DNA of 63,986 nucleotides, counting the filler, from Hausera hauseri (lineage: Eukaryota): assembly GCA_046269625.1 (NCBI GenBank). It is 11 parts of 11 records of this genome, joined end to end, with 100 filler letters (N's around TTAATTAATTAA, not from the genome) between each part and the next. Parts side by side here need not be neighbours in the genome. Positions count along the whole stretch, not along the records: positions 36,809 to 43,786 come from JBJURY010046998.1; 10 more parts are not named here. The stretch is one strand, 5' to 3'. This document shows positions 16,341 to 55,175 of the stretch, one piece after another (the first letter of the stretch is position 1; the number at the start of each line of letters is the position of its first letter). The notes under the pieces were generated by a model. The model searched no databases, was not told the DNA's origin, and saw nothing but the letters and a program-made list of their open reading frames with translations. The translations under genes and the position numbers were made by a program.

Positions 16341-16652
16341 TAATTAACGACATACCGGCGACCAAGGCCCCACATCAAGTAATCGAGTATAGTTTGAAAG
16401 TCTTAAAATTTGGGCTATAAGTTCAAAAAGGTTTTAAAATAAAAATCTTTAGAGAACAAATATTGATAGATTAAGAGTAGAGAGAGAGAGAACAAAAATT
16501 TAGATAAACGTTCACTTTCCGAAACAAAAGTAAACTCAGTTAATACATATTTAACCGCCGTTGAACGATTCGATAAGTTAGAAATTCCTCTTGTGAAAAC
16601 TAAAGTTAAAAGAAACAATAAAGTAAATTTAGAGACTAATTACGCAAATAAT

Positions 16653-17716
16653 ATGGCAGCAGATAACCCACCAGTAGTGCAGAAGCTAGACATCTTCACT
16701 TTTGATTCTCTGAATCTGCCGGCATACGATGGAAATCCGGAGAGATTAAATGAATTTTTGAGAACTTATAAATTGCACCAGTCTTACTCCTAAAGCAAAG
16801 ATTAGATGTTTGTTTTTATATCTGAAGAATTTAGGCGCTGATGCTTACAGCGAGCTCACTACTGATGAGAAAAAATTTTGGTCCTCCCTGGTAGGAGCAT
16901 TAAACCGATAATTATTGCCAACAGTAACACCGCAACAGAAACTTATGGCATTTCAGAACAGGGTGCAACAGAAGGGTGAATCGGTAACCCAGTTTGCATT
17001 TTCATCGAAGAAACTCGCTAATAGTTATGTAAGAACATTGAGAATAGCCAATTTCGCCAGAGCCAAAACAGACGCGGAACGTGTGCCGCCAAAAAAGGCA
17101 ACCACTTCAGATTTGGATGTCATGATGACGACGCAATTATTTAATGGTATTTGGTCCCGAGATTTAGTGAAACAGTTGATTTTAGCCAGACCTGAGAATT
17201 TTGAAAGGACTTTGCAATTGGTCCAAGACTTAAAAATGGCACTTGATAGATATGCCAGACACAATGATAGGAATGATAGAAATAATGATCGAAATGATCG
17301 TAGCAATAGAAATTGGATTGATAATCGTGGGAGAGAGTAGACGATTTAACGATAATAGAAATAATAATATTGACTATAGGAATGGTCGAAACAGTACTTA
17401 CGCGAGTGATCGAAATACGAATAAGTTTAATTCCAATTCGGATAGAAATCGACTTAGCTATAAAAGTTCTAACTTTCAAAATCATCATGATGATAATCGA
17501 AATAATAATAATCGACGAAATGTAGATGGTGCACAAAGTTCGTCGAATCAATACTATAGAAGGCCAAATAGCGCTAAGTCACCTGAAAACGAAAACGGTC
17601 GTCAGAGAGTTGGCAGAAATGGGAATTTAGTTTGCATTACTTGCGGTAAGGAAGGACATATTGCAAGGTCATGTCCGAAACCGCGTAGCGTCTCCTTCAC
17701 CGAGCCTAATAAGTAG
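16653..17716 (+). pseudogene. gag: gag (capsid + N/R/D-rich linker + CCHC nucleocapsid), copy 1
   Basis: LPAYDGNP, MHR-like QQKGESVTQFA, zinc knuckle CITCGKEGHIARSC. Frameshifted. Confidence 0.9.
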
Positions 17717-17745
17717 AGTATGTTAAAGTCAACAAAAACTTAACA

Positions 17746-20700
17746 ATGAAATATGGCGTGTGTGGAGATACAGGTACTATTATTGACATACAGGATTTGC
17801 GAAAATTTCTAGATGCTCAGCCTGAGACTAATAATCCACAAATTCTTATGGCCAGGAAAGAATACGGCGATAAACTACGATTATTAGAGGTTTACCACGG
17901 TTTAGAAAAACCGGAAACTGAATATGAGTATGCCATAGTACCCAACCAAATTGATATAACGCGGAAAAAGAGTATTCCGACAATTAATAAAACGGTAGAG
18001 AAACCAGGAACTTCGACAGAAGTCGACTTAGATGCAGAACCTAAGTCTACGGTTGAAAAAGTAAATAAGATTACAGAAGATGATATAGCAGAAAAAGAAT
18101 TTATGGAACAATTAATACTTAGAATTACAAAAAACAGAGGCCGTAGCCCCTAACTTAAGCAAAAACGTAGAAGTCGTTCGCGATCGCAAGTAACTAAAGA
18201 AAAACCAGAAGAAGCAAAGGATACAAACATCGCTGTAAAAACCGACGTAGAGTCTAGTTTAAAAACAGCAGAAATAGGTCTATTTACACCCATCGAGGTA
18301 AAAGAATGTGCAAAGTCGATTAACAAAATCAACGAGATTTGCCTACTTCCCACTAGCAAGGCAGAAACAAGAAATATTGATAACTTTGATCCAAGAAAGT
18401 GGAAAGTCCGACGTTCATGGAAAAACGCCGATGAATTAAAGAAAATGAGAATTAGATGCCACAATCCAGAAACATTACAGCAAAATTTAGAAAGGCTTAA
18501 GCAGATTAGCGAACAAGTAGATATATCTGATAATGAGCAACAATTTGCTGAGAGGTTATATAAAAGTTTAAAATTATGTAGTGAAGGAAAACTCGAGGAA
18601 GCAATCGACTTAAAACAACCTGAAGTGGTGCCACCTGAAACGTCAATAAAATGGAAGCGTGAATTAGAATCGTGGATTAAAAATGGAGTCGAATTTTCGG
18701 AAGGGTGGAGCAAAAAAGAAGATAGTGTTGATGTAAAAGTCGCTAAAGCCCAGACGCTACTGTCTACCTTGGAGGAAAATCCAAATCTGAAGAGAATAGT
18801 CCGTAATTTAGAGCATATGATGGATGAAATTCATGTGCAATGATTAATCGGCTTAGAGAAAAACCGGTTAACCACCGAAGTGACGTTGATTTAGAGATAT
18901 TGGGTATAGACCCAGTAGACATTCCTCCTTTAATAGAGATAATAAAAATTGCCTTCGCCGTACCTAGATAATATATGAATTTAGAAATTCGTATTAAAAT
19001 GGAGAATGCAAAGAGATCACAAATTAGTATTTTGAGAAATCGAGTTATGCTTATGAATAACGAAGAAACCAAATATGTAATAAAGGCTTGTATAATAGAA
19101 TTCTACGAATATAAGGATGAGTTCAATTATGTCAGTCGGATTATGATTTTCATAGAAGATCCAGATGATGAATTAAAGGATGCTTATAAAATGTTATACA
19201 AGGCGATATTAGCAAAACCTATAATGGTTAACCAATTGAACGAATGGTCCGAATTAATATCGAGACTAAGCAAATTAGTGGGAAACCGTATCAAGGAATT
19301 TTCAGAAAGCGAACCTACGATAAAGAGACAATTAGAAGAAAGTGCACGTAACTTAGATACGATACAAGCGGAGATATATATCCGGACTCAATTCGACGCA
19401 TTACGGCTGTGATGTTTGACAAATAAATTCCAGCTTTAAACACGAAGGATATATTCAGAAATAAAATCCACGGATGATGAAAAACGATCTAATAAATAGG
19501 AAATCGAAATTGAATACCAATATATTTTGAACAAACGTCTAACAAATTAATCTGCTTAAAATCGAAAGGAAACCAAAGTTGTAACCAATATTTATTTAAT
19601 GTCTGTTATTGACAATAAACTAAAAGAATCAATTCTTAAAATATCTGCATATTAAAACAATCTCAATTTTTTGCACATATATAACATCATGTTACAATCT
19701 AGACAGTATAGTCACCAAATAGATAGTTCAGTAAATAAGGTCCATTTGAAAATCAAAAAAATAACCATAAAATTATATAAAAGTTTGTATACATACAAGC
19801 ATCTGAACAACAATATCGACACAAGAATGATACAGACTGAATAGCCGTCCCATACAAAATATTGTAAAAAATAAAAAAATAGGTTTCGAGTCAGTCGTCT
19901 ATTTTAATTTCTGTGTAAAAGACTGTAGCAAACGGAGGTGGGTTTTGAATCAATTAATCAAATGAGAGAATTCTAACGAAAAGAGTTGCTTCAGTTCACG
20001 CGATTCCACATCGTACGACTGCTGAATTTCGTTCAGAATATTTTCTTGTTTTGACAATTCTTTCGAATTCTTGTTGATATCCGATTCGATAATAATAATC
20101 AGACTGGTCCACCAGTCATCGTCGCCCACACAGTACTTATTTTTCATTCGAATAATTTTCATTAAACTTCCGGCATCTCTAATGATTGGATCCCTGGTCG
20201 ATTTTTGTGTTTGTAGATTTTGGATACATGTGGTACGAATAATTTGGTCAGTCAATGCAAATCCTCGTTCAAATGAATGAAAGAAAAGAGATGTTATTCT
20301 GATACTGACGGAATGGGTCATGATTGATGGATGAGGAGCGCGATAAATTAGTACTACTACCGGCTAGTGTGTGGAGAATACTAGACTCGCTTGTCGATGG
20401 TAATGATATCAATTTGTGTTTGACTTCCTGTTGTTTCTTTGGTAGACTTATTTTCAGGAGTATGTTGACGATCGTACAGCAGATCCATGGACGGATAATG
20501 GGTGGCATGTAAGACTGCAATATATCTTGTTGATAAGGGGGCTGATCGTTTTCATGACACTAAGTGATGTTGAACTGGTGATAAGTAAGGCAATGAGATT
20601 CGTCAATCCGTCTGTTGACACAGTAGGTTTGTATGCCGATAAATTCGTTACTGGCAAATCTCGAGGCAGAAGATCGGGGCCCGCCTAGGAACCCGACGTG

Positions 20701-22905
20701 GCGGCAACGGATGCCCGGCCGTGTCCAACCAAATGGGCCAGAGGGCGCCGGCCGCTGTGGGCACCACAACGGCAAATGAACTTTATAAAAAAGAAACAAG
20801 AAATGATGATATTGGAAGAAATATATAAAATTATCGAAGAGACAAACTTTACAGAAAAGCGGAATATGAGTTGCAATTTTTACCCAAGATTAAGAAACAT
20901 CCGACTAGAAGGAGTCCAACATTTAACAGCTAAATCTATTGACGAAATCTTAATTCAAAATTTCGAAACTTTGGATATTTGTTCAGAACATAGAGCCGCT
21001 GTAGAGGAAGCAATAAGATTCCTACATAAACCACAAAATATATGGCCGGAACAGATCAAAATTGCCATACCGGCTTAACAAAAATAAGGAATGACCACCA
21101 CCTCAGTTTTGAAGAAAGTAAGTTCGTGAAGAAACTGCTTGATGCGATAGACCCCGACTCAGAAATTCTTAATGAGATGTATGAGTTAACCCTACTATTA
21201 GTAGAAATGGCAGAAATTAGCTATGAGAAGATAAGACAATTGATGCCTCAAATACGACAGGCTGAAGAAACGTGCATTAGAACCAAACAAAGAGCAATAA
21301 GGTTAGACGAATTAGCAAAATAGCTCGAAATTTATCGGAACAAGTATGCTTTTACTGAGTCAGAAATTAACAGAAAGATAGAGTTTGTATAAAGATAACA
21401 AAGCGATGTAACTATATAGCTAAACGACTATAATCAAATACAACCGAGATTATAGGAAATTCGAGAGAACGTACAAAGATTGAATACAGCGCTAGTAGAC
21501 TATGGACTTCCAGAAGTTGGAAACGAAGCAGAATGGGATGCTTACTTAGATGCGATAAATGCCAAAAATCCGATAACTCCAGTACGTTTAAATGAACCAG
21601 AAATGTGTCCGCAGATTAGGAGATTTAATGTGGAGATGCTCCTGGACTCAGCTCTAACTGAAAAAGCTTTAGTCGAACTAACTAACGTAAATATTACTGA
21701 AAATAAGCTAAGGCAACTTATTCCGACCCTAACCAAATTATCTTGTGAGAATACAATATATAGCGCGGTCCCAAAACTACTGATAAGGAAATACGCTAAA
21801 ATCTTAAAAGCTAAGCCTGAGGTAACGATGAAAATAAAGATGGGCGAAAAAGAATGTGAGTTAACCACATATTCATATGTGAGGGATATAAGATAATGGT
21901 TAATGAACAATGGTGGAACAAATGAGTTAATTATAGATTTTATTTTAGAGGTAGAATATTAGACGACTTAGAACAGTTAATAGACATTGAAGTATCCCCG
22001 ACGAAACAAACCGAACAGTGGTAACAGTAGCTAATGAGCACACTAAATAAGAAGCCACACGTAAGGCTGAGACAAAACAATGTGTAGGACAAATCATGGG
22101 AGTCCGAGATGCCGCCATGTATTTTGAGTATCTGCAAACGGACAAAGACAAGAAACAGTACGACAAGAATTTAGTACCACTGAGTGAAATGACAACAACG
22201 GTTTCGAAACAGAAACACCCTGTAGGTAGGCCCAGGAATACGAGAAGATGTTGACTACAAAGGAGAATTGATTAGAGAATTGAGACAGATGTCAATTCCT
22301 ATCTTCAGTGCAGACAACGAAGAGTTAAGCGAGTTAATGAAAAATCTAATACGCATCGTAAATTATTCAAACTTCCATGGTGACGTATTGGACGAGAAAG
22401 AGAAAGCGATATTTAACGCACCTAAATGATGAGAAATTTTTGCTTTAATTTATCAAAGAGTAACCTAACCGATGAATCAGTGGTCGAGAGGATTATGGTG
22501 GAGAATACGATAGAAGAGCTAAGAAAAGTATTACTGTACTTAGCTATCAAAACAAATCCCTCTCAGGAGAATAAATTTAATATAGCTACAAGCTTAGCAA
22601 GGAAAGCGATTAGAAAACTGCCTCCAGAAATAAACTGGTTAAGATTATTCGATAAGGAAGAAGGTAAACGATCCAGCAATAGTAATCGACTCGAAGACAT
22701 GTTACGAAATCTCACAACAACGTAAAATAATAACCGTAGAAATGAATCAAACTGGTTAATCAACTTACTCACCTTGATGATGCTGGTGAAACAAATAGGT
22801 GTCATTACCGTCTATGATTGCGATAAATTTCAACTTGGACAGAAATACTCCTTAATGGATTTAGAGGTGTGCGAAGACGCCAGATCGCATAAACTAGAAA
22901 CAAAG
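17746..22905 (+). pseudogene. Region X (unknown helical protein, RS patch, ubiquitin-like domain ~21820-22030, AT-hook ~22213-22239) and the Env signal/N-terminus, copy 1
   Basis: Colinear homology with 36809-40385. Interrupted by the solo LTR at 19408-20768, stops and frameshifts. Confidence 0.8.
19408..20768. mobile_element. Solo LTR (1361 bp) of a different LTR retrotransposon
   Basis: Termini TGTGATG...CACCACA with a perfect 5-bp TSD ACGGC (19403-19407, 20769-20773). Absent from the homologous site in copy 2 (~38135). Confidence 0.88.
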
Positions 22906-24955
22906 GAGAAAGGGAACAGAAAGGGAACAAGACGATCACTTAGGCTCTTTGCTGAAGATGGAAGAAACGTACGGATTATTGCAGTAAACTACGGGGAAAA
23001 GGACAATGGCGGATATATTCCCATATAGGTTTCCGTTCGGGAAATAAATGGCGTAGAAGTTTACTCTAAGGTAATTAGTCCCCGGAAACCAGTCAGAGAA
23101 ACCTATGCAGAGGTTACCGGAATCAAAAAGAACACCTAGTTCGAGGCAAAGACATTAACTTGCTCAGAATGGAACTCATCATGACCTATATAGATGCATT
23201 CTCGCCGGATATAAGATTGAAGAAATTGTGGGAAAACTGGAAATACCACGTACCTACATAGCAGGAGCCAGAGAAATGAAAATCCATCCTACAGTTACGC
23301 AACAATTGGGAAGACTTATCGAAGAAAAAAATAGCTGTTTGCCCATGACCGTAGAAGGTCCATTTAAGTTTATGTTGGAAGCTATGAACAGCAAGCATAT
23401 AAAGATAAGCCGTCTTATGACCGCTAGTCAAAGAACGCAATACTTACGGTATATATCTCACCCTGAAGTGAGATCATGAGTGGACCCAAGAAAATCCAAA
23501 ACAGAAACTGCTCAGTCCCACCGACCCAGAAGGATTGAATAAACTTCACAGAAAGCACTTCCGGCCATATTCGCTCCACAGGATGGTCGAATCGTCGAAC
23601 CAAGGAAACTATAATATAACCATAAAGTGGTCTGGTGCAATAAAGAACACTCCAAGGCATGGATTGGAGTTGGACAGAGACGTCCTACCGAATAATACAA
23701 ATTCTTCAATGGGATTTAAGGTACCCGTAACTCCTGAGAAATCACTAAGAGGAATTAAAACGAAGAACAACTCCAAGAGGCAGCGAATCGAAAAATCCTC
23801 CCACAAAATAATCAACTTCAGTTTACGAATACCTATTCAAAATGAAGGATAAACGAGAGAAGACCGGAGAAGGAATGAAGAATTCCAGTAGAACTAAATT
23901 GAAGGCTACTGAAACAACCCAGAAAACAAAACCAAAACGCCCAGAAGAAAACAAAAGCTTCAATAAGATCGAACAAAAACAGATGGAACCCGGTACATCC
24001 TAAAGAGAAAGACCTAGGAAAAATTTACAAAACAAAATACCAGAAAAGGGAAGATCCCAGCCTAACTAACATATCACTAAAGTGAATTTACCGCATAAAG
24101 GGAAGTCCAATGAAGATGTCCGCTATGCTTTCTCAGACGACTGTACAAAATTACTAATCATGGCAGAATATTGCAGTCATCACAGAATCGAAGAGGCCGC
24201 ATTTTACGTAAAGGCCATAAAAGCCAGAGAGACCTTAGAAGACGCATATATGGGAGAATCCGAGAATCGGACGTTATTTAGCCCCCATATTCAATTCCAG
24301 GAGGATCAGGTAGTTATCCTTGCCGGTAGACGCCTACGTTAAAATAATGCTTAAGAAACAACACCAAAAGTATCAGTCAGAGTGTAAAATTCCCGATTTG
24401 GATAGAGAAATTGTCATAGATTGGACCTTAGTGCCCATGAATTACGACCACAGAAAGAGCTCAGTAGATTGGAAACAGAAGATAATCCATGCATATTTAT
24501 ATCAAGATTAAGACGGACTTGTCTTCGAGCCTATAGAAATCTTTCGGAAGGTAGACATAGATAGAAAAGGGGTTGAAGAAGAAGAAGACGTATGTACAGT
24601 CTGTGGAGATAACATCAAACAAGGATTTGTGAAATGGGACAATAAAGAATGTAGACACAAATACTGTTGTGGATGTTTAGAAGCATGGACATTGGAGAAT
24701 GGGAAAACAAATTGTCCAGTATGTAGAGCCGAAGCCGCCGGACTTAGGTATTATTCGGACTGCAACCACCATCGGACGGTTCAGATCCACCCTGCAACTG
24801 GATATAATATCGAAGATATACCTTCAGATAATACCGAAAACGGAAGAGATCTTCGGCAGAGAATGGAGCTTCTCAGATCGCCACGCATAGGCGTCACCTT
24901 TCTTGACGCAATGGGCACATTCGAGCATGCCGCTCAGGAAGAAGAAATGTTGTAA
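22906..24955 (+). pseudogene. 3' coding region ending in a C3HC4 RING finger (24593-24727), copy 1
   Basis: CTVC...CRHKYCCGC...W...CPVCR. Homologous to 43887-44606. Confidence 0.82.
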
Positions 24956-25410
24956 AAACAAGCCTAGTGAAACAGCTGAAGCTGTTGAGATGCAAATAAT
25001 CATATTGAAATAATTAAATATACATAAACGAACGATCGAAATAGTTAAATGTACCTAAAACGAATGGTAATGGTTTAGTAGCATATGTTAATGAAATAGA
25101 AATTGTAAATAATTTGTAGATATGGCAAAATAATTATGGTAAAGGCAAATAAAATAATAATAAATAAAATTAACCAGATGGACTGGGAAGAAGCGAAAGT
25201 ATAAATATAGAGAAGAAGTCAAAACAGAGACGAGACAAGAATCAGGAAAACTGCTTATCAAAATTTGGAAAGGAAACTGTTTATTTAATTCGTTGAATGA
25301 AATTGTTGATTGAATCGCCGTATCTTCTGAACATGACCCTGTGGTAAATTTGTTGTTTAATAAAGGTTTTTCTTTTGTTAAATTGTTAAATTTCTATATA
25401 GTTTTCCACC
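24948..25410 (+). repeat. 3' LTR (partial), copy 1
   Basis: PPT caggaagaagaaa then TGTTGTA; TATA-like 25200; aataaaggttt...atagttttcca is homologous to 45005-45053. Confidence 0.75.
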
Positions 25411-36808: not shown

Positions 36809-39800
36809 TTACTGAGGATGATGCAGCAGAAAAAAATTTATAGAGCCATTAATACTTAAAATTACGAAAAACAGAGGCCGTAGCCCTTCATTAAAAACGA
36901 AACGTAAAAGCCGTTCACACTCCAAAGTAACCAGAGAGAAAATTGAAGAAACGAAAAACCCGAACGTCGTTGTAGGAGGTGACACGGACCATAGTTTGAA
37001 TACACCAGAAGTTGTTTCATACACCTGTTGGAGTAACGGAGTCTATAGAGGCACTTAATGAAATTAACGAGGTCTGCCCACTTCCCATTAATGAGGAAGA
37101 GACGGCAAACAATTATGATTTCGATTCAAAGAAGTGGAAAATCCGACGTTCATGTAAAAACGCCGATGAAGTAAAGAAAATGCAAATTAATTGTTTGGAG
37201 CTCGAAATATTACAGAGAAATTTAGAGAAGCTCAAGCAGATTAGCGAACAAGTCGATATAACCAAAAAAGAACAACAATTCGCCGAGATGTTATATAAAA
37301 GTTTGAAACTGCGTAGCGAAGGAAAGTTTGCGGAACCAATCGACTTTGAACAACCCGAAGAGGTATCAACCGAAACGTCGTTATAATGGAAGCAGGAATT
37401 AAAATCATGGATTAAAAGCGGTGTAGAGTTTTCAGAAGGATGGAGTAAAAATAAAGATATAGTCGACGTAAAGGTCACTAAGGCTCAGACGCTATTGTCT
37501 ACTTTAGAGAAAAACCCGAAATCGAAGAGAATGGTTCGAAACTTAGAACGTATAATGGACAAAATTCGGTACGCAATGATTAAACGGCTTAGGGCAAAAC
37601 CGGTTAACCATCGCAGTAAAGTCGATTTAGAAATATTGGGTATAGACCCGTTAGATATTCCTCCCTTGACGGAGGTGATAAAGATCGCATTTGCTAGACC
37701 CAAACAATACATAAACCTGGAAAACCGACTTATGATAGAAAACGAAAAGCGAGCACAGATTTATAGCTTGAGGAACCGAATCATGTCCCCAAATCATGAG
37801 GAGACCCAATATATAGTAAAGGCTTGTATCGTAGAATTGGACGAGTACAAGGACGAGTTCAGTTATGTCGGCCGAATTATGAATTTCCTAAGAGGACCAG
37901 ACGATGAGTTAGAAGATGCATATAAAATTCTAGATAAGGCTATAATGGCGAAACCGATAATCGCAAATCAACTGTCGGAATGGTCCGAATTAATAATGCG
38001 ATTAACCAAATTAGTAGAAGATCGGGAGAAGGAATTTCCGCAAAGCAAGCCAGTGGTAAAGAAGCAACTAGAAGAAAGTGCACATGATTTAGGCACAATG
38101 CGAATAGAAATAGACATCCGTACTCAATTCGAAGCGCTACGACGACTAAAATTTATTGAAAAGGAACGAGAAGCGTTGACGATGGGAGAAATCTACAAAC
38201 TGATCGAAGAGACGAATTTTACGGAAAAACGGAATATGATTTACGATGTAAACTCAAGGTTAAGGGTTGTTTGACTCGAAGGAGTACAATACTTAACAGG
38301 AAAACCAATCGACGAAATTTCTGTACAAGACATTGAAATCTTGGACATTTGTCCAGGGCATCGAGATACGTTAACGGACGCAATAAAGTTTTTGCACAAA
38401 CCACAAGAATGGATGGCCGCATCAGACCAGAATTTCCATACCAAGTTGACAAAAATAGTAGACGATCCACGTTTTAGTTTTCAAGAACACAAATTCGTAA
38501 AGAAACTGTCGGATGCAATGGACCCTGATTTAAAGGTTATAAATGAGATGTATGAGTTAGTCTATTTATTGGTGGAAATGGCAGAAATCAGTGATGAGCA
38601 AATGAGGAAATTGATGCGCAAGATACAGAAAATAGAAGAAACATGTATCAAGACGAAACAAAGAGCGACAAAGTTAGATGAAATAACAAAGGAGCTTGAA
38701 GTCTATCGAAACAAATATGCTTTCACCGAATCCGAGGTTAAGAATAAACGAGAATTTGTACAAAGATGGCAAAATTATGTGATTCTTGAATTGACAGATT
38801 ATCACTAGAAGGGGCTGATCAACCCGAACGAATTGGGCGAATTACTGAAAATGATTCAGTATTCCTGTGGAATCGGAGTAGGTTTCCTGACTACGCAGAT
38901 AAAAGAAATACAACCAATATTGGAAGAAATTAGGAAAAATGTACAGAGATCAAAAACAATTGGGATAGACGCTGGACTTCCCGAGGTCAGTAACAAGCCG
39001 GAATGGGATGCATACTTCGACGCAATGCTGACCGAAAAGCCTATGACTCCAGTACAATTGAATGAGATACAATCATGTCCGCAAGTCAGGAGATTCAATG
39101 TGGAAATGCTTTTGGATTCAGCGCTAACTGAAAAAGATTTAATCAAACTAATTAACGTAAACATTACCGACAGTAAATTAAGACAACTAATTCCGACATT
39201 AACTAAATTATCTACCGAAAACATGATTTATAGTACGGTGCCGAAACTTTTAATAAGGAAGTACGCAAAAATCTTGAGGGCTAAACCTGAGGTGACGATA
39301 AAAGTAATGGTATCATCCGAATGGATGGACGAAAAAGAATGCGAGTTGACTACATATTCCTACGTAAAGGACGTAAGAGAATGGCTAATAAACAATGGTG
39401 GAACAAACGAGTTAAACTACAGATTTTATTTTAGAGGTAGAATACTCGACGACCTAGAACAACTAATAGACGTCGGTATTATTCCTGACGAAACAAATCG
39501 GATAGTGGTAGTGATAGCTAACAAACAGACAAAGGAAGAAGCTACACGTAAAGCCAAAACAGAAGAATGTGTAGGACAAATCATGGGAGTTCGAGACGCT
39601 GCACTGTATTTTGAGTATTTACAAACGGACGAGGATAAGGAACAATACGACATAAATTTAGTACCACTGAGTGAAACAACCACTAAGGGTCCAAGGCCGA
39701 AACGCCCAGTAGGTAGGCCTAGAAAAGTGCGAGAAGTGGATTACAACGGAGAATTAATTAGAGAATTGAGACAGATGTCGATTCCGACTCTTAGTCCAGA

Positions 39801-40233
39801 TAACGAGGAATTAAGCGAGTTAATGAAAAATTTAATACGAATTGTAAATTATTCTAGTTTTCGAGGAGATGTGTTAGATGATAAAGAAAAGATAATTTTC
39901 GATGCAGCCAAAATGATGAGAAGTTCACGTTTCAAACTATAAAAAATTAATTTAACCGACGAGTCAGTAATAGAAAAGAGAATGGCAGAAATCACGAATG
40001 AAGAATTAAGAAAAGTTTTACTATACTTAGCTATTAAAATAAATCCTAACCGAGAGAATGAAATCAATAGGGCTATAAGCTTAGCACGGAAAGCGGCAAG
40101 AAGAATGCCTTGCGAAGTAAATTGGGCAAAACTATTTGACAAGGAAGAAGACAAAAGAAACATCAATAGACTCGACGATATGTTACGTAACCTGATAACG
40201 TCAGACGTTGGAGGTCGGAAAAATGAATCGAAT
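36809..40233 (+). pseudogene. Region X, copy 2 (ubiquitin-like domain ~39289-39516; AT-hook KRPVGRPRK 39700-39726)
   Basis: ORFs 37012, 37495, 38341, 38833 and 39982 all share one frame and are separated only by point stops. UBL pattern VTIKV...YVKDVREWL...NYRFYFRGRILDD...LIDVGI. Confidence 0.8.
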
Positions 40234-42020
40234 TGGCTAATTAGATTGCTTACCTTAATGATACTAACAAAGCATATAAGCGCGGTAACCGTTTATGATT
40301 TCGATAAGTTTAAATTAGGACAGAGATATTCCTTATGGACCTGGAAGTATGCGAGGACGCCAGACCGCACAAATTGGAAACAAGAGAGAAAAGTTACTTC
40401 CTGTATCAACATCAAGAATTGATATCGTTAGACGGAATGGAGTGCATGCTGAGACGATCGCGTAGTATCTTCCACTGTGGACTGGTACACGGACATTCCT
40501 CCATAATCAAGCCAACTACTCCGCTAATTCCAATGAATTTAGAACGCCAACACTGCAAGCAAGCTAAAGAGACTGGAAGAGTACAGTGGGATAGTATGCA
40601 ATTAGAAATGCAACCAGGTAGTGGCCGGAAGACTAGATATGCATAGCGTATATTGTCACGGAGAGGAATACGACACCGGAAAAGGATTACAATCGAATGT
40701 GGTAGTCGTAGACTTTTATGAATCAGAGATGCGGTCACAGAAAGTAATGTTCCATAATGTCACCAAGTTATACACGGAGAATCAAAAATGCCACTTACAA
40801 GATGGAACCTGTGCTTTTAGAAGTTTGGTTATAATATGGGAACCTCCCTCTGGAAGAAGCTGTAACTTTATCAAAATTAAGGAGTTAAAGTTTAATGAAA
40901 CTACCGGAAAACGATATGTAGACCAATCGGAGGCTAATTCAAGAACACGCGAAGATGTATCGGAACACCCTACACCTACTATATTAATCTCGGACCCGCA
41001 TGGACTAAAATTTATAAAAAAGGAGATGATGACTCGTTGCGATGTAATAATGTTCGCCACAAACTATGAGGCGTTTTTTTGTAGCCGAAATGGAAACAAA
41101 CTCAAAAACCTACAAATTGGAAACGCAGGATGTTCGGATTGAGGATTACCTGAAAAATAGAGACGATTAATTCTACTATAAAGGACAAGTCGGAATAACG
41201 GAATTATATCATAAAATGATAATGAATGACTGCAAATTGGATACAGAAATCATGAGAACTAAAATGTCTCTTATATATGCAAACCCGGAATTGGCTTTTC
41301 CAATAATTCCCATGAGAGAAGGAATTTTCGGTCGAGTTACGGGCGAAGTGTTACTAACCTATGAATGTGAAAAGTGAAAAGTTCCCATCAGTGTAGAAGA
41401 AAAGCGTTGTATCCAGGAACGTCCTGTTATTTATCAGAATACTCCAAGATTAGCTACACCATTGACAAGAGTGATGTTGGATAACGCGACACAACCAACT
41501 ATACTCAAGGATTGTAAAACAAGCTTAGGAGAGCCAATATTTAGACGCAGTGAAACCGACTGGGTTAGTTTACCTAATGGAGATATTACTGCCGCCCCTA
41601 ACAAGCTAACAGGGACGAATCTCGCGAACGAAATTACAAACGATAAATTTCAAGACACCTCATCGAAAGGTATATATAGGCCGAAGGAAATTGAGGCTTT
41701 CAGACAATTCCTTTCCTTTCCACGACAACGTACGCATGACCTAAATCGAGCTATGGCGTCTGTAGTAGACGACACACGATATCAGGCTAAATGGGAATCA
41801 GTACTTGGCGTAAACCACTATCAGAGAGTAACAACAGAAATACTCTACAAAATTTAGGGGAGATTTTTGATCTTCGGACAGGCCGCATCTGGATTTTTAG
41901 CGATATATTTCTTGATACAAATGATTAAGGCAGTCATCCAAGCCGTAATAAACGGATAGGGAATATTTATACTAACCGGATTTTCACGTAAAATTCTGAC
42001 TGCAATCATAACGCCCTTTG
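40234..42020 (+). pseudogene. env: Env: chuvirus (Jingchuvirales)-type glycoprotein with internal signal peptide and C-terminal hydrophobic segments
   Basis: WLIRLLTLMILTKHISA|VTVYD(C/F); IFHCGLVHGHS; YCHG..NVVV; CHLQDGTC..IIWEP..C; LYHKMIMNDC; GEVLLTYEC; C..ERPVIY; GIYRPKEI..SFP; TM FLIFGQAASGFLAIYFLIQMI..G*GIFILTGFS. This motif order matches chuvirus G proteins. Confidence 0.85.
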
Positions 42021-42694
42021 GAAAATTTTTAAAAGCATACGAAGAGAGTAGATGGAAATCGGACGTAGAACGCCATGTCGGTTACTATAATCGTAAACGT
42101 AAAGGGAGATCAATATTCCTTCGCAAGCGGAAGTCTACAAAATCTATTAGAAGAAGGAATAAGTCAGATGATGACGAGCCAAAGGGAGGAGAAGCGCTTT
42201 CAGGAATAAATCGACATAATATGTACTCGGTCGTTAAAGCGCCATTGCCCGTGTTACCTCCTACCGCCCCATTCTACTACGATTGCGATAAACAGTTCAT
42301 GAGCTCATATCAGACAGAAATTTATAAAATGACAATTAATGTAGAAGACCCTTATGAAGGAACGAAACGATACAAAATTTTACGGAAAATGTGTTACCCC
42401 CAATCCGCGGATGATCCTAAGATGATATACTTACCAAGAAAACCTAAGAATATTGAAACTAGATCGACAGTTTGGGACAACCCAAGATTAAAAACCTTCC
42501 AACATACTGAACTACATACTAACAATCGGGAACCGCTATTTAGTACTCATGAAATAAAAGAATTGCACGTAGAAAATAACGAATTATATCTAAACGGAAA
42601 ATTAAGACAGTTATCGGAAAACATAATATCCGCCCCAGAAATACGAATAAACGGACACAAAATATCAGTAACTAAACGTACGAAAATAGCATAA

Positions 42695-43120
42695 AATTGT
42701 TTCGGAACAGTGATCGAAGGAAGGCCGTTCGCCAAAATCACTATTGAGGATTGGGAAGTTTATGCGTTAATTGATACGGGTTCTGAAATGTCTTACATCA
42801 AAAATGATTCAATACCTCAAACGCTAAGAGGACAGTTTTATCCGCCGTCTACAAAAGATTCAGGCAATACGGGAGCTTTTGGCCAGATGTCAAAACCAAT
42901 GTTTAAATGGAATCCAGAAGTCCAATTAGTTGGACAAATATTTCGGCATGAATTTGCAATCATGGAACAATTAACTGGTGATGTCGTTCTAGGATGCGAT
43001 TTATTGAAAAGGCTACTAAATATAGCAATCGACTTACAAACAGGAAAGCTGATTGAGATTAGACCCCAAAAGGGCGTGAAGAACGCTAAGGATAGAAAAT
43101 TTTGGGAAATGTGAATACCA
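42695..43120 (+). pseudogene. Retropepsin-like aspartic protease
   Basis: YALIDTGSEMSYI ... VVLGCDLL. Confidence 0.92.
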
Positions 43121-43620
43121 GTAGACGAGAACATCCCACCAAAAACGGAGATAATAATTTACTCACAGATTCAGCAAGATGGCGATTAACCAGTATATTT
43201 TGAGCCAAGGGGAACATTACATCCTTATATAACACTCAGTAATGTGCTAACGAGAGTACACTCCGGTCGTGTACCGATCAGAATAGCTAATAACGCGCAG
43301 ATTCCCTTCAAGCTCCATGCTTATACTACTTTAGGAGACACGTATAAAGTATCATCGATAACTATCGAAGAGAAACCTTATAAATATACCAAGTTTCCGC
43401 CTCACGTTGAAACCAAGTTTTCACATTAGTCATATTGTCGATTTTACGAATTATTGTGCCGCTACAAATAGATTATTGCTAAAGATGAAGAGGACATCGG
43501 TAGGGCGAAAGCATTAAAGCTGACTATTCCGCTCAAGAAAAAGCCTGGTTCAAATGAAGAAATAGATCTGGAGGATCAGAAGATGCCAAAATAATACACT
43601 CCACCGCATTCGCTAAGACC
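43121..43620 (+). pseudogene. Post-protease beta-rich linker and start of a Gypsy reverse transcriptase region
   Basis: IPPKTE..VYFEP..VPIRIANN, then ELLCRYK*IIAKDEEDIGRAKALKLTIPL (Gypsy pre-RT pattern). Same frame as the protease. The contig ends before the RT core. Confidence 0.6.
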
Positions 43621-43786
43621 CGAGAATAAATTACTGTTCTGTTTATGCCGGTTTGCAACGCCCATGTTGTAAGTTACCAGTAAACCAATAATTCAAAATA
43701 AAGTTCGACTTATATGAAGTAAAACCAAATAAATTGAGCAAACATTTGCGGACTTACTATCCGAAGAATAGAATATGGAAGATTTC

Positions 43787-43886: not shown

Positions 43887-44606
43887 TATGTGTGGGAGAA
43901 CGTTGGACTCGGAACCTATCTCACTTCACTATTTTGTTCAAAAAGGACAGGGAAAATAGTGGTTCCCGTGAACAAGCAAATCCAAGTATTATTATAGAAA
44001 CAATATCAAAGGTATAAGATAGAAGGAAATATTCTTGATTTGGACAAAGATGTCATGACAGACTGGACCTTAATCCAAGTGGATTGCGATCCACGAAAGA
44101 GCTCAATTAACCCCAAACAAAAAGTGATTCATGGCTACTTATATCAGGATAAAGATGGTCTTGTATTCGAGCCGATTGAATTAATCATCCAAGTGGATCT
44201 GGATAGGGACGATTGGAACAAGGAAGATAGCGAATGCCCCGTATGTGAGACAAATTTGAAACAAGGGTATGCGGTTCTGGACAACAAAAACTGTCGTCAT
44301 AAATAGTGTTGAGATTGTCTGGAGAAGTGGACACACGACAATGGGAAAACAACCTGTCCAGTATGCAGGGCAGAAGCCACCGAGTTGAAATACTATTCCA
44401 ACGGGAGCTATACCCGTATCGTCCGGATTAAACCTTATCACAGTTACAGCCAGGAGACGAATCCCCTAATACGTCGAGAACATCAGAACTCACCATCGGA
44501 TTTAGATGAAAGGATGAATCGGCTAAGACGACCTGAAACGTTTGGCTCCACCTCTTCTGACGCAATAGGCCCTTCCGAGGATGCCGCTCAGGGAGGAGAA
44601 ATGTAG
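43887..44606 (+). pseudogene. 3' coding region with a C3HC4 RING finger (44234-44369), copy 3
   Basis: CPVC...CRHK*C*DC...W...CPVCR. The ORF ends AAQGGEM*, overlapping the PPT and LTR start. Confidence 0.82.
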
Positions 44607-45310
44607 CGTATTGAGCAACAGTTGTTGAAGTAATTGTAGCAGTTGTTAAAAGTAATAAAAAATTTAGTGTTGCCGAAAATAATAAAAATTGGTTGAAGCA
44701 ATAAAATGAATGAGCTAAAACTATTGCAATATACAAAGATTGCAAATATTTAGAAAATCCAATATGTCTAACATATTGTATTTATGTATCGAGAAAAGCA
44801 GAGATAATAGAATTATATTATTTTTATTACCGAAACCAAGCCTATATAAACGATATCAGAAATGAAAAAGTCAGAACAAAATTTGCGACTTAGGATCGCA
44901 GTGAACCGAATCGAATTGAACTCTCCTTATTCCAAAAGACTTACGAATTCTATTCTATATTGACAATACCTGTTCTTTGAAGCTATTTGATATCCGTGTG
45001 ATTAAATAAAAAGGTGATTTAGATATTTGTTGTTAAACTCACATAGTTTTCCATCGTCCTTTAAGGACGATTTGCACTACACTAAGGGTAAAATCTTACT
45101 TAAATTCTAGAGCTAGGTTGAGAGAATCTAACTTAAGACACGCAGTTTTGTGCACACAGTACCTGCATTGACACCTAAACTAAATCTAAAAATCTTAATT
45201 CACAAGCAGACTAATCGAGACCGAATAGTCCTAACCTGCTGATACAGAAATAAAAACTCGGATTAATATTGTTGTAGTGGGAGAAGGTAAGGGCCACCCC
45301 AACTATAACA
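44602..45310 (+). repeat. Complete LTR (709 bp)
   Basis: PPT cagggaggagaaa (44589-44601); TGT start, ...TATAACA end; TATA tatataaa 44843-44850; aataaa 45005-45010; followed by the PBS. Confidence 0.85.
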
Positions 45311-45314
45311 TACT

Positions 45315-45331
45315 TGGCGACCCTAGCAGGA
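45315..45331 (+). promoter_or_regulatory. Primer binding site (probably tRNA-Arg type)
   Basis: TGGCGACCCTAGCAGGA lies 4 nt after the LTR end and is complementary to a tRNA 3' end ...TCCTG....GGTCGCCA. Confidence 0.75.
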
Positions 45332-45687
45332 CAGTTTGTGCCTCGCTAGACTTGACTCTTGAGAAACCAATTAACGACATACCGGCGAATAGCGCCATTT
45401 ACATCAAGTAATTGATTTAATAGGAATCGAAGTTTAAAATTTGGGATTATAAGTTGATAGAAGGGATTAACTGGATTGAATTGAGAGCAAACATTGATAG
45501 GCTCAAATTGAAACAAAACTTGTTAGTAAACGGTCAAAAGGAACTAAATCAAAGAGAGACAAGAAATAGACTTTATAATGAAGATAAGATAATAGATAAG
45601 CACTATCTGTCCGATACCGAATTAAACTCTGCTAGAGAATTTAAAGTGCCTCCTAGAACTAAGATAGATAAAACGAATAAAATTAAA

Positions 45688-46720
45688 ATGGCACCAGATA
45701 ATCCAGCGATAGCTCAGAAACTTGATATATTCACGTTCGACTCGTTAAACTTACCCGCATACGACGGAAACCCAGATGGGTCAAATGATTTCCTAAGAAC
45801 TTACAAATTGCATGCAGAAGGTGCCGGTCTAGCAACCGAAGTCATGATAAAACGATTATCATTATATCTGAAAAACGTGGCTGCAGATGCCTATAGTGAA
45901 TTGACTAATGAGAAGAAATTATGGTCCTCTGTAGTAGGAGCTCTGAATCGTAAATTATTGTCAACGGTCACGCCACAACAGAAGCTAATGGCCTTCCAGA
46001 ACAAAATACAACAAAAGGGTGAATCGGTTACGCAATTTGCATTAGCACTAAAAAAGCTTGCTAATAGTTACGTGAGTACGCTAAGGATAGCTAATGCGGC
46101 AAAGGCAAAGACAAACGAAGAACGTGAAGCGGCAGAAAAGGCGAGCCCGCCAGATTTAGATGTCATGATGACTACACAGTTAATAAACGGTATATGGTCT
46201 AGAGATTTAGTTAAACAATTAATTTTGGCTCGACCAGGCAACTTCGAGACTGCATTACAGTTAGCGCAAAACTTAGAAATGGCATTAGACAGATATGCCA
46301 AACAGAATGAAAGGTATGACCGAAATAATGATCGTGACAATCGAGACAGAAAAAAGAAACAATAGAAGATTCAACGATAGTAATAAGGATCGAGGTTATG
46401 AGAATAGAGCTTAAAACACCTTCAATCGCAACACGAGATATGATAATAGGAACTTTATTGATAACCGAAATACGTACCAAACAGGTTATAATCCGAATAG
46501 AAATCAAAATAATGACCGAAGTAACAAGAATCGTTATATAGAAAATCGAAGTTTTAAAAATAGAAAAAATGGAAATGATAAGCAGGCTCAGCTGACTCAA
46601 AGCAAAACGATGGGTCGACCCAAAGCACAGTAAATGAAGACGGAAGACAAAGGATCGGTCGAGACGGAAACCTGATTTGTTATTCATGTGGTAAAGAAGG
46701 TCACATAGCTAGATCATGCC
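45688..46720 (+). pseudogene. gag: gag, copy 3
   Basis: MAPDNPAIAQKLDIFTFDSLNLPAYDGNP, QQKGESVTQFA, CYSCGKEGHIARSC. Confidence 0.9.
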
Positions 46721-48744
46721 CTAATCCACGGAGCGTATCATTTGCGGAGACTAATAAAGCTAGCATGATAAAAGATAATTTGGAATGAATCTATGGGAAA
46801 TGATGTGACATGGGCATGATTATCGAAATGCAAGACTTACGAAGATATGTAAGAAATATGGGCGAATCTAATAATCCACAAGTAATCAAGGCTAGGAAGG
46901 AGTATGAAGAAAATTTGCATCAAATGGAAGTTTATCATGGATTAAGAGAACCAAAACAGAATACGAAAAGGCTATAGCGCCCAAAAATACTAATATGGCC
47001 AGAAAAAAAAACCTAAATCCAGTGGCAAAGCCAACTACGCCTCCAAGCGTAGATTTGGATGTAGGTACTGAGGTTGCGCCTAAAGATAAGGACAAAGTAA
47101 CAGATGAGGTTGAAAGCGAATTCATTGGCCCACTGATACTTAAGATAACGAAAAGTAGAGGTAGAAGCCCCTCTCTTAGGAGAAGGTCGAGAACTCGTTC
47201 ACGATCACCTATCAAAAAGGACATAGAAAAAGAGGAAGATTTCACTATCACTCTAAGAGATGAAACAGAGTTAGACACTCCGAAAATAACGAACATTCTG
47301 AACATTGATTAAATAAATGAAATATGTCCGTTATTATCTACTGAGGAGGAGTCAAAAGAGGAAGAGTCTATTAAATTTGCAAAGATCAGAAAATATTGGA
47401 AAAATGCGAATGAGCTAACAGAAATAAGAGACACTTCGAACGATCTCGGAAGACTGACTGAGAGCTTACAAAAACTGCAGCAAATGAGCAAGCAGTTGGA
47501 CATTTCAGGAAAAGAACAACAATCCATAGAAAAGTTGTATAAGAAGTTTAAAACCGGCCTCCAGAAAGGAGAAGAAAGCATACCATTCGAACTGCAAGAA
47601 GTACCGCAAGATTGATAAAATATTGGCAAAAGAAACTGGAATTGTGGACAAGGAGTGAGATCGAATTTACAAAAATATGGTGGAATAAAAACGAACCGTT
47701 TCTGGATCAGGTTAATCAAGCGCAAGGACTGTTAGACACACTTAAGAACAAACCAAAACTAAAACGCGTAAGGCGTAATTTAGAAGGATTGATGCATGAG
47801 ATAGAAGAAGCGATAATTTCTTATCTCCATAATAAGCCAGTATACGAACTGACTAATACTGACCTAGAGATACTGAGTATAGACCAAACCGATATTTTCT
47901 TCCTATTGGAAATGTGCAGCTTCATAAGGCATAAACCTCAGAAATATTCAGATTTAAAAATACGTATCGGAAGAGAAAACGAAATACGAGACAAAATTAA
48001 CGACTTAAGGATCGGCGTAGTCTACTCTGAAAACATAGAAGTAAAAAGAATAATACGCGCTTATCTGCTTGAATTAGATGAATATAAGGAAGAATTAAAC
48101 TATATGGAACAAATCGTAAAATTTGTACGAGGACCCGATCATGAACTAAAAGAAGCTTTTGAGGCTTTAGACAAAACTATATACGCTAAGCCAGAAACAT
48201 CTAGACAATTGGAGAAGTGGATAGACTTGCTACCTTCTATAGTTGAAGTGATTAACGAACGGCTAAGGGAGTTCAATGCGGTTGAACCAATAATGAAACA
48301 TCAATTGGAGGAGATGCTACTATATATCGGCACAATGGAAGATGAAGCGAAATTGCGAATCAAATTCGAATCATTTCGAGAACTTGAATTTATGAACCAG
48401 GAGCAAGATCTGACATCACTAACGGAAATGTATACTATGATAGAAGAAGAAGACTTCTGAAGAAAAAGAAATAAACTAAGTAATCTCCAGCGGAGCTTAG
48501 TAACCATCCGTTAAAGGAAATCTCTGTACGGGAGATAGAAACATTAGAAGTGTGTAATGACCACCGGATTGCTCTCGCGCAGATACTGCAGTATATACAG
48601 AATTCAGTTGAATGGTCACCGGGCTTTGACCTACATTGCCACTCCGAATTAACAGAAATTAAAAATGATCCGCAACTGACAAGCGATGAAGCCAAGTTTG
48701 TAAGTAGGCTGATGCACGCAATAGATCCTGACGCCGAAGTGTTA
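46721..48744 (+). pseudogene. Region X N-terminal part, copy 3 (divergent subfamily)
   Basis: In frame with the CCHC knuckle. Homologous to 17746+ and 36809+ (LILKITKSRGRSP, VRRNLEGLM, AIDPDAEVL). Confidence 0.8.
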
Positions 48745-48844: not shown

Positions 48845-51197
48845 AAAGAAAAAATGAACGAATGAAAGATCGAACAAACCAAAGAACAAACAAATGAACG
48901 AAGGAAAGATCGAACGAACAAAACAACGAACAAAAGAAAGAACGAAGGAGCGAACAAAAAGTCGTAAAAACAAAAGAATTTACGAAAGAACGAATGAACG
49001 AACGAACGAACGAAAGAATGAAAGAACGAAAGAACGAATGAAAGAAAGAACAAACGAAAGAAAGAACGGAAGAAAGAAATAACGAGAGAACGAAAGAATA
49101 AACGAAGGAAAGAACGAACGTAAGAACGAACGAACGAACAAACCAAAGAACGAACGAAAGAACGAAGGAACGAAAGAAAGAACGAAAGAACGAAAGAAGG
49201 AACGAAAGAACAAATGAACGAACGAACGAATAAAATAACGAACGACAGAAAGAAAGAAGGAGCGGACGAAAGAACGAAAGAAATAACGTAAGAAATAACG
49301 AAAGGACGAACGTAAGAATGAAAGACGGAATGAAAGATAGAACGAGCGGACGAAAGAAGGAACGAAAGAACGAGCGAACGAACGAAGGGACAAAGTAAAA
49401 AACGAAAGAACGAAAGAACGAACAAAAGAATAGAAGAATGAACAAAGGAACGAAGGAAGGAACGAAAGAACGAAAGAACAAACGACCGAACGAAAGATCG
49501 AAAGAAGGAACAAAAGAACAAATAAAAGGTCGAAAGAAGGAACGAAAGAAAGAACGAACGGACGAAAGAAGGAACGAAAGAAAGAAAGAACGAACGAACG
49601 AAGGAACGAATGAATGAACGAAAGAACGAACGAAGGATCGAATGAAAGAACAAAAGAACGAACGAAGGACGGAGCGAATAAACGAAAGAAAGAGCGAATG
49701 AACGAAAGAAGAGACGGACGAACGAAAGAACAAACTAACGAACAAAAGAACGAAAGGAAGAACGAAAGAACGAAAGAACCAACGAATGAACGAGTGAGCG
49801 AACGAAAGAAGAAATGAACGAACGAAAGAATGAACGAATCAAGGAACGAACGAACGAACGAAGAAACGATGGAACAAAAGAAAGAACGAAGGAAGGAAGT
49901 AAAAAACAAACGCACGAAGAAACCAACGATTGAACGAATAAACGATCGAACGAAAGAATGAAAGAAGGGACGAAAGAACGAAAGAACGAAAGAAAGATCG
50001 ACAAAATGAACAAAAGAAAGAACGGACGGACGAAAGAAAGAACGAAAGAACGAACGAAGGATAGAACGAATGATGGAAGGAAGGAACGATATAACGAACG
50101 AACCAACGGACGATGGAATAAAAGAACGAACGAAGGAATGAATGAACAAACGAAAGAACGAACGAATGAACGAAAGAACGAACGAATGAACGAACGAACG
50201 AAAGAAGGAAACAACGAACGAAGGAACGAATGAACGTACGAACGTACGAACGAACGAAAGAAAGAACATATGAACGAACAAAAGAAAGAACGAACGAAGG
50301 AACGAACGAACGAACGATCGAACCAACGAACGAACGAAAGAACGAAAAAATAAACTAAAGGCCGATCGAACGTACGAATAAACGAACGAACGAACAAACG
50401 AAAGAACGAACGAACGAAATAAAGAATGGAAGAGAAAGTGAACGAAGGAAAGAACGAACGAACGAATGAACGGAAGAAGGATGGAATGAACAAAAGAAAG
50501 AACGACCGAACGAACAAACAAAGGAACGAACGAACGAATAAACGAACGAAGGAACGATGGAACAAAAAAAAGAACGAAGGAAGGAAGGAAAAAACAAACG
50601 CACGAAGAAACCAACGATCGAACGAATAAACGATCGAACGAAAGAATGAAAGAAGGGACGAAAGAACAAAAGAACGAAAGAACGAAAGAAAGATCGACAA
50701 AATGAACAAAAGAAAGAACGGACGGACGAAAAAAAGAACGAAAGAACAAACGAAGGAACGAATGATTAAACGAAAGAACGAAAGAAAGAAAGAAGGAAAG
50801 AACAAATGAACAGAGGATCCAACGAAAGAACGAACGAACGAACAAACGACCGAAAGAAAGAATGAACGAATGCACGAACAAACGAACGAACGAACGATCG
50901 AAAGATAGAGCGAACGAAGGAACGATCGAACAAATGAACGAACAAAAAACGAAAGAACGAACGAACGATCGGAAGAACGAACGAACAAACAAATGAACGA
51001 AAGAATAAAATACTGAACGAAGGAAGGAACGAACGGAATAACGAGAAAACGAAGGAACGATCGAACAAACGATCAAACGAACGAACGAACGAACGGAAGA
51101 ATAAGGATGCAAAAGTACAAAAGGTCGGGCGGGCAAAAATAACAAACGATGAAACGAACTAAGTAAAGAACGAAAGAACGAACGAAAGAATGAAGGA

Positions 51198-51233
<36 letters not shown>

Positions 51234-54200: not shown

Positions 54201-54507
54201 AAAGATAAAACGAACGAACGAATGAACGAACGAACACACGAAAGAAAGAAAGAAAGAATAAAAGAACGAACGAATGAACGGAAGAAAGTATGAACGAACG
54301 ATCGAACGAACGGAAGAACGTATGAACGAACGAACGAACGAAAGAACGAACGAACGAACGAACAGACGATCGAACGAACGAAGGACCGAACAAAGAAATA
54401 ACGAAAGAATGAACAAACGAAACAATGAAAGAACGAACGATCGAACGAACGGAAGAACGTATGAACGAACGAACGAACGAAAGAACGAACGAACGAACGA
54501 ACAGACG
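48845..54507 (+). repeat. Degenerate (GAAC/GAAA/GAAT)n tetranucleotide satellite, 5.7 kb
   Basis: The whole contig is built of GAAN units with a strong purine/pyrimidine strand skew. Confidence 0.97.
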
Positions 54508-54607: not shown

Positions 54608-54811
54608 TTTAACAATGACTTTTACATAGAGTAGCGTATCGTTCAAATCCAGATATTCATTGTCCTATGCCATAATGTTGAATTCAATGTCAGTGTTATC
54701 ATCCGTTGAAACCGAATCAACGGGGCAGATTTCTTCAAATGCCGCATTGTCAATAACAACTAGTGGCGCCGCTTTGTCAATTATACACAATTCAGATTTT
54801 GCAGACGCCAT
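54608..54811 (-). pseudogene. Polinton/Maverick major capsid protein N-terminus (truncated)
   Basis: MASAKSELCII...EEICPVDSVSTDDNTDIEFNIMA*DNEYLDLNDTLLYVKV fits the Polinton MCP start KSEL...IEF.I.....YLDL..T.L. Confidence 0.75.
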
Positions 54812-54818
54812 TTGTATG

Positions 54819-55175
54819 TCAATCGAAAATTATACGACGACGACGTTTGTTTATAGTTGAAAAGCTAGTTAATCTACAACGTTTTCTCAAGCCACTATCA
54901 GCGAATTGTTTTTTGACTGATTCAACGACTCCAAGTGCAGCGCTTTTTATTTCGGACAAGGCGTGTTCCTTCAATGATTGTAAAATTGATTTGTTTTCAT
55001 ATAGTACGTCTTGAGCTGTTTTTCCTGCCACGGCTCCGATACGCTTCAACACCAGAAATGCTAAACGTGCCAATGTACGCAACCATCCAGAGCCATGTTG
55101 TTTACCTACGACATACGGCAGTTCACCGCCCTGCTGGGGTTTACTGTAAATGGATACGATTTCAGAATCAATCAT
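54819..55175 (-). CDS. Polinton/Maverick small basic (core-like) protein
   Basis: QQGGELPYVVGKQHGSGWLRTLARLA motif, basic tail, located between penton and MCP. Confidence 0.65.
   Translation of the reverse strand: MIDSEIVSIYSKPQQGGELPYVVGKQHGSGWLRTLARLAFLVLKRIGAVAGKTAQDVLYENKSILQSLKEHALSEIKSAALGVVESVKKQFADSGLRKRCRLTSFSTINKRRRRIIFD

Follow-up and report, generated by a model that had tools for sequence, protein, structure and literature searches.

A Burro-like Ty3/gypsy family in Hausera hauseri with a gB-type Env in frame between its Gag-side cargo and its protease, likely encoding a single membrane-crossing polyprotein

We analysed a 63,986-nucleotide stretch of Hausera hauseri DNA (GCA_046269625.1; the whole of this stretch is called the window here) that holds three copies of a Ty3/gypsy retroelement in which an envelope glycoprotein (Env) is encoded ahead of, and in frame with, an aspartic protease (PR). 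The window (G+C 36%) strings together small contigs rich in repeats, with N spacers between them, most of which are 100 bases long with a 12-base stop linker at the centre. The copies occupy three separate contigs, copy 1 at 16341-25410, copy 2 at 36809-43786 and copy 3 at 43887-48744, and gag through protease never lies on one single piece of window DNA. Copy 1 shares 70-74% DNA identity with copies 2 and 3, and the latter two are about 57% alike in region X, the cargo between Gag and Env; the three are diverged, decayed subfamilies rather than recent twins. The copy-2-like family is abundant in the genome, because 22,650 contigs of run X1 align to copy 2 at an identity of at least 80%. Its best protein identity to known proteins is 43% (337 matches at E 0.001, of which the best 150 were considered), and the element represents a high-copy, uncatalogued Ty3/gypsy family whose copies here are dead, making intact relatives the better objects of study. 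The features of copy 2 are as follows.

36809..40227, plus strand: region X, a long, mostly helical cargo between Gag and Env, with 4 stops per 1,110 codons of the main frame (frame and stop count)
39136..39516, plus strand: helical and ubiquitin-like module within X, common to intact relatives (profile of five relatives with the window left out, E 2.5e-12)
40228..40284, plus strand: predicted internal signal-peptide-like stretch, in frame with X (11-residue hydropathy 2.18)
40285..41890, plus strand: class III (gB / mononegavirus-type) fusion glycoprotein ectodomain with three frame changes, two stops and three N-glycosylation sequons (PF24664; tblastn with intact relatives; sequon scan)
41894..41950, plus strand: H1, predicted membrane span (19-residue hydropathy 2.06, against 1.79-2.43 across 14 scored relatives)
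41963..42019, plus strand: H2, weaker hydrophobic stretch, likely interfacial (19-residue hydropathy 1.42; 1.01-1.71 in relatives)
42041..42691, plus strand: Env tail or linker, basic at its start (first 40 residues: 16 K/R, 4 D/E), carrying PTAP at 42260-42271 (motif scan)
42719..43015, plus strand: retroviral-type aspartic protease (PF00077)
43016..43624, plus strand: spacer between protease and reverse transcriptase (RT), homologous to that of intact relatives by alignment, the homology stopping before RT, near 43620

The first-pass annotation of this DNA had placed the Env C-terminus (41462), the linker (42221), the protease (42710) and the post-protease region (43244) in one frame. This holds: the frame, 816 codons long, contains 9 stops where each of the other frames has 67, and it aligns along its length with an intact relative of 3,761 amino acids (E 7e-52 and 5e-21). 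Five stops interrupt copy 2 between 41462 and 43244, and besides the TAA at 42692 there are stops at 41855, 41957, 43112, 43187 and later. The TAA at 42692, singled out beforehand as a feature that would speak against a continuous frame if common to all copies, is not a trait of the family. Its middle base differs from the window in 1041.5 of 1076 depth in run X1 (approximately 97%, 35 contigs) and in 27.8 of 27.8 in run X2 (100%, 7 contigs), and no indel was listed at this stop at a 35% threshold among related contigs of the two runs. Further upstream, the copy 2 stops at 37384, 38272 and 39940 lack a counterpart in copy 1 when these copies are aligned, as had been proposed, and those at 38806 and 41375 were found in no other contig aligned there (30+4 and 33+4 contigs); breaks are thus private to single copies for the stops compared, namely 37384, 38272, 38806, 39940, 41375 and 42692. 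The frame changes around Env, at about 40334, 40630 and 41150, fall within the domain, inside the alignment to intact relatives, again as first described.

At the upstream border of Env, copies 1 and 2 had both been taken to run from X in frame into the signal. Copy 2 does so, being stop-free from 39943 to about 40330, while copy 1 carries a stop at 22723. The ratio of nonsynonymous to synonymous substitution (dN/dS) across the X/Env junction is 0.09, and for X it is approximately 0.09-0.15 between copies 2 and 1, at a dS above 1.2 that is saturated; X, about 1,235 codons long, evolved under purifying selection. A hydrophobic stretch stands at the same place before the ectodomain start in all 15 relatives examined (11-residue hydropathy 2.15-3.42), and in the window and these relatives there is no conserved separate start before the signal, the nearest methionine lying 5-220 residues upstream at no fixed distance. 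A single X-Env-PR frame is well supported.

Intact relatives extend this frame to the whole element. P0003 and P0004, from clusters of 7 and 21, are intact single open reading frames (ORFs) of 3,761 and 3,771 amino acids in the order Gag-X-Env-PR-RT-integrase (IN), and locus L003 has one frame of 2,693 codons with a knuckle, Env, PR, RT, RNase H and integrase; the order RT, RNase H, integrase is that seen in intact relatives. Env is followed by a protease in one chain in 11 of 21 matches scanned, chosen for length among the 150, and likewise in P0003, P0004, P0175, P0178 and P0180. In a tree built from the C-terminal part of Env, using the window and the 139 of 154 matches that were long enough, the chains that show a protease motif past Env, 16 in number, all fall with the window in one clade of 23 (support 0.85), the label of one of the 16, P0108, being given by the motif alone. 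The BEL/Pao-type matches P0058 and P0151 lie outside this clade, and membership of the window element among BEL/Pao elements with a chuvirus-type glycoprotein was rejected, its Env standing ahead of the protease and not downstream of integrase. Viral contigs gave 346 pattern matches, none of which was confirmed.

The Gag end of the family is seen in copies 3 and 1.

45688..46725, plus strand: Gag of copy 3, a capsid-like region and one CCHC knuckle at 46678-46725 (tblastn to Gag of intact relatives, E 3e-14 and 6e-16; PF00098)
46726..48744, plus strand: gag/X junction and then the first part of X in copy 3, with stops at 46786 and 46801 (frame and copy comparison)
16341..25410, plus strand: copy 1, with gag, X, the first approximately 50 codons of Env, unrelated DNA, a RING ORF and the LTR (long terminal repeat) start, which looks like an internal deletion (alignments between copies)

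The knuckle of copy 3 had been described as running in frame into X; the frame is indeed the same, but the two stops at 46786 and 46801 lie between them. In one alignment of the junction every break is private to its copy and codon-like matches are kept on both sides. Gag sequence is part of the chain in 8 of the 15 long relatives examined; the nearest, P0041 (support 0.89), shares the Gag-tail motif and shows no break from there to Env, a long X included, and the junction is open in loci L002 and L003 as well. Gag is probably continuous with X in the window family. As a side observation, X of copy 1 is interrupted by a 1.36-kb insertion (19406-20769) that has no translated match elsewhere in the window.

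The earlier annotation had also proposed an internal signal and one or more membrane anchors that would return PR and RT to the cytosol. Judged by simple hydropathy scoring, all 15 sequences that could be scored, of 17 tried, hold one strong stretch and one weaker one past the ectodomain, and no other ahead of the protease. This fits one strong span wherever it could be scored, as a prediction, with an H2 that reaches 1.7 in some relatives. A single span past the ectodomain is likely, being the simplest reading of these profiles, and H1 would probably be the sole full span, with H2 lying along the membrane and the tail, its PTAP motif, the protease and Pol in the cytosol. Late domains work only in the cytosol. 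Late-domain-like motifs occur in 9 of 14 linkers, that of the window being PTAP, against 2.2 expected from shuffles, although the patterns are loose and were chosen after the sequences had been seen, and the sequences are related to one another. The linker ahead of the protease is about 220 residues long.

Taken together, we favour, as somewhat more probable than all else combined, the reading that this is a Burro-like Ty3/gypsy element with a gB-type Env in frame between X and the protease, likely translated as one Gag-X-Env-PR-RT-IN polyprotein that would cross into the endoplasmic reticulum (ER) from an internal signal onwards and come back to the cytosol by one span. The single polyprotein of the first-pass annotation thus stands for its X-Env-PR part, with whole Gag-to-integrase ORFs in relatives, and is incomplete in the window at gag/X, broken in both copies, and at RT.

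Several observations weigh against this reading. Six RT cores gave no match in the window better than E 0.16, and RNase H and integrase of the family are absent from it. The stop at 22723 in copy 1 stands nine codons before the signal-like stretch (copy 2 is without it), and a separate observation in L002, one of three metagenome loci, is a single stop just before the Env signal (L002:3058-3060); either may be chance or a read-through site. With regard to topology, H2 climbs to 1.7 in some relatives, charges flanking H1 show little bias, and most relatives lack the basic linker start that the window element has. Other difficulties lie at the gag/X junction: in copy 1 a stop at 17714 is joined by a net offset of 5 bases; an alternative alignment puts the stop of copies 1 and 3 at one spot (17747/46786), overlapping an ATG; 7 of the 15 long relatives start inside X, without Gag, and may be broken copies or split genes; and both copies are broken, with 3-4 breaks per approximately 30 codons against the 0.65-0.8 expected from our own rough estimate of background, made from the stop and copy comparisons. 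The probability of this clustering is 0.004-0.05, or 0.013-0.14 once three junctions are allowed for.

These breaks could mean that Gag ends at a genuine stop and that X-Env-PR-Pol is a second ORF reached by frameshift or re-initiation, an arrangement that would leave the Env-Pol topology the same, give no default Gag-to-Pol polyprotein and make Gag in excess. The clustering in both copies, the shared stop overlapping an ATG and the relatives that begin inside X all fit such a split, whereas the alignment in which all gag/X breaks are private, the openness of gag/X in 8 of 15 long relatives, the nearest included, and in L002 and L003, and the lack of any canonical slippery heptamer visible by eye at the junction speak for continuity, and we hold a split Gag to be unlikely, if worth keeping in mind. 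A second alternative accepts one ORF in the DNA and lets splicing remove env for Gag-Pol, with Env made from another spliced or subgenomic RNA, sparing Pol the passage through the membrane behind the ectodomain. Other LTR elements are known to splice messages for env and gag, splicing would solve the problem of a 1:1:1 stoichiometry, and both window copies have a methionine 19 residues ahead of the signal; yet it leaves unexplained why many diverged relatives keep both Env junctions in frame and free of stops and why a conserved methionine before the signal is missing, and we judge it improbable. That the shared frames are chance or a contig-joining artefact, with Env and protease separate genes ending at the 42692 stop, is very improbable: the copies are indeed separate contigs and that stop lies 9 codons ahead of the protease match, but a stop within 10 codons of a given junction arises by chance with P of about 0.2, this one is absent from 97-100% of aligned depth, and Env runs to protease within one contig, matching the intact single ORFs.

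Under the single-polyprotein reading, one long chain would be made; its Gag-X part would stay in the cytosol, the internal signal would open translocation, and signal peptidase would cut behind it. Gag-X might be anchored by this signal, briefly or lastingly, possibly in place of a myristoyl anchor, as the Gag start has no Gly2. The ectodomain would fold and be glycosylated in the lumen at its three sequons, H1 would stop transfer, and the tail, protease and Pol would remain cytosolic, where the protease could, as particles assemble, cut RT and integrase loose from the tail of Env, and where PTAP might recruit the endosomal sorting complex required for transport (ESCRT) for budding. What the sequences show is the frames, the domains and the selection; cleavage, topology, budding and the tethering of Pol to Env-bearing membranes that the first-pass annotation suggested are inferred. 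Should the one-span model be true, these elements would differ from retroviruses in how they package Pol and bud, their late domains sitting on the tail of Env rather than on Gag.

A Bcl-2-like domain lies shortly before the Env signal in relatives P0027, P0031 and P0041 and at L001:1028-1246 and L002:2659-3009, and in these relatives the Env signal would serve as its tail anchor. Such a domain was looked for in the window X and not clearly seen, the relatives' profile giving E 2.6 and hhalign 0.3%, with no PDB match and a low-confidence fold. A bolder extension, which we put forward as speculation and think rather unlikely, is that the Env anchors organise assembly: the signal would tether unmyristoylated Gag-X (tail-anchoring the Bcl-2-like domain in relatives) and the Env tail would carry the ESCRT late domain and the whole of Pol, so that one chain would bring capsid, fusogen and enzymes to a single membrane, and this in a host other than a flatworm, nematode or bryozoan.

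The remainder of X offers fewer landmarks. The ubiquitin-like module is weak on its own sequence (Pfam ubiquitin E 0.0076, below the cut-off; best PDB sequence matches to polyubiquitin, E 0.09), and Pfam found no MATH, BIR or ankyrin families in X. Longer relatives of X were sought and none turned up, which is weak evidence. Single-sequence folds of two parts of X reached a mean predicted local distance difference test score of 34 and 43, and Foldseek with the second, low-confidence fold returned nothing at E 0.001. An AT-hook-like motif lies at 39700-39726, and similar ones were noted by eye in P0025, P0029, P0030, P0175 and L002. In the protease-RT spacer, no Pfam family was found, a dUTPase-like domain included, though the region aligns with relatives.

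The ends of the element were located on the copy 3 and copy 1 contigs.

43998..44606, plus strand: accessory RING-finger ORF at the 3' end of the element (weak PF13639; tblastx E 3e-71 to the second copy)
24314-24955, plus strand: second copy of the RING-finger ORF, in copy 1 (PF00097)
44590-44601, plus strand: polypurine tract, common to the end of the copy 1 contig
44602-45310, plus strand: putative 709-base LTR, TG...CA, whose start and poly(A)-signal region are common to the end of the copy 1 contig
from 45315 (to 45332), plus strand: primer-binding site, Arg-like, with 2 mismatches in 12 bases to a tRNA-Arg end in the supplement of PMC13524379, the best of five ends compared

Copy 3 thus reads RING ORF, polypurine tract, LTR-like stretch, tRNA primer site, gag, which suggests a head-to-tail junction or a collapse in the assembly. 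The order RING ORF, tract, LTR is repeated at the end of copy 1, and the element is therefore ordered LTR, primer site, gag, X, env, protease, RING ORF, tract, LTR, the pol expected after the protease not being seen in the window. A putative TG...CA LTR, a polypurine tract and a tRNA primer site, three marks of Ty3/gypsy membership, are all found; the LTR evidence consists of a single LTR and a partial second, with no LTR pair on one element and no target-site duplication seen. In two contigs (43998-45332 and 24314-25410) the end of the RING ORF coincides with the polypurine tract/LTR start.

Several further features of the relatives were recorded. Among P0003, P0004, P0030 and P0175, several have 2-4 or more protease-like repeats, and several have a second region between two hydrophobic spans after integrase. 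An accessory ORF past the polyprotein at L001:10617-12107 has a weak RNase T exonuclease match (E 1.4e-5), P0122 has immunoglobulin domains fused ahead of the same glycoprotein family, and P0026 is a gypsy polyprotein deposited under a bacterial metagenome bin, where host contamination is likely.

Elsewhere in the window, the contig at 12114-16240 carries on its minus strand a gypsy-type integrase of another family and then a coiled-coil ORF; it was considered as the pol of the present family and rejected, having 24-27% identity to relatives and lying on the other strand of a separate contig. Polinton-like pieces at 27415-32130 and 54608-59560 contain a protein-primed polymerase (PF03175), an rve integrase and neighbouring ORFs. 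Among named organisms, the polymerase matches ants and a scorpion best, at 49%, followed by a brittle star at 48%, which is too weak to point to any one phylum. A 5.6-kb degenerate ACGA microsatellite at 48845-54502 yields long spurious ORFs, and an ORF at 6617-7288 opens with a P-loop-like motif and has only a weak Pfam match (E 0.065).

In the flavivirus polyprotein, a capsid is followed by an internal signal, a luminal glycoprotein, an anchor and cytosolic enzymes. Were our model correct, the window element would work in a comparable manner; we claim no homology, and its class III fusogen, aspartic protease and reverse transcription differ. Among retroelements, the nematode NERVs of Sacco et al. 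2022 reportedly have env before pol in a metavirus backbone within one continuous gag-env-pro-pol ORF, and are said to differ from the window element in being nematode-restricted and having a helicase accessory ORF.

The layout is not new, having been known since 2019 from Burro/GYPSM1 (PMC6431247; Arkhipova and Yushenova 2019). Burro is a single ORF of 4,873 amino acids with the same domain order and Env in frame between gag and pol. Burro/GYPSM1 of planarians shares with the window element a CCHC Gag, a long cargo with a ubiquitin/SUMO-like domain, an in-frame Env related to mononegavirus fusion glycoproteins between gag and pol, a protease followed by a spacer, accessory ORFs and LTRs; the window element differs in having one knuckle, not two or three, a RING ORF at its 3' end, and no MATH, BIR or ankyrin by Pfam (PMC6431247). 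We file it as Burro-like, not as Burro, by described features: it has a Gag capsid and CCHC knuckle at its start, a ubiquitin/SUMO-like domain between Gag and Env (weak on its own sequence, clear with the relatives' profile) and a gB / mononegavirus-type Env upstream of the protease in the same frame.

The order GAG-ENV-POL with an ENV of the HSV/gB type (HSV, herpes simplex virus) has likewise been described in errantiviruses of Nematoda, Bryozoa and Platyhelminthes (PMC13524379; Chary and Hayashi 2026), from a search that left 5 kb of room for gag ahead of env and, where this order is concerned, took in non-insect genomes. These elements share with the window gene order, Env class, an ectodomain between a signal or span and a span, and a tRNA primer site; membership of that group needs an RT, and the window family has none in the window. 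The sections of text consulted are silent on whether GAG, ENV and POL form one ORF, though the figures of that paper may show continuity. Atlas and related belpaoviruses (bioRxiv 10.64898/2026.03.22.711591) also place Env within a single retroelement polyprotein and have a Gag without myristoylation, but their Env is class II and C-terminal (Gag-Pol-Env), so that nothing need return to the cytosol. The membrane crossing and processing of such polyproteins were not found addressed in the literature consulted, including the sections of PMC6431247 and PMC13524379. Set beside these systems, what is new here is an uncatalogued family whose X is about 1,235 codons long, with PTAP following Env and a RING ORF ahead of the LTR.

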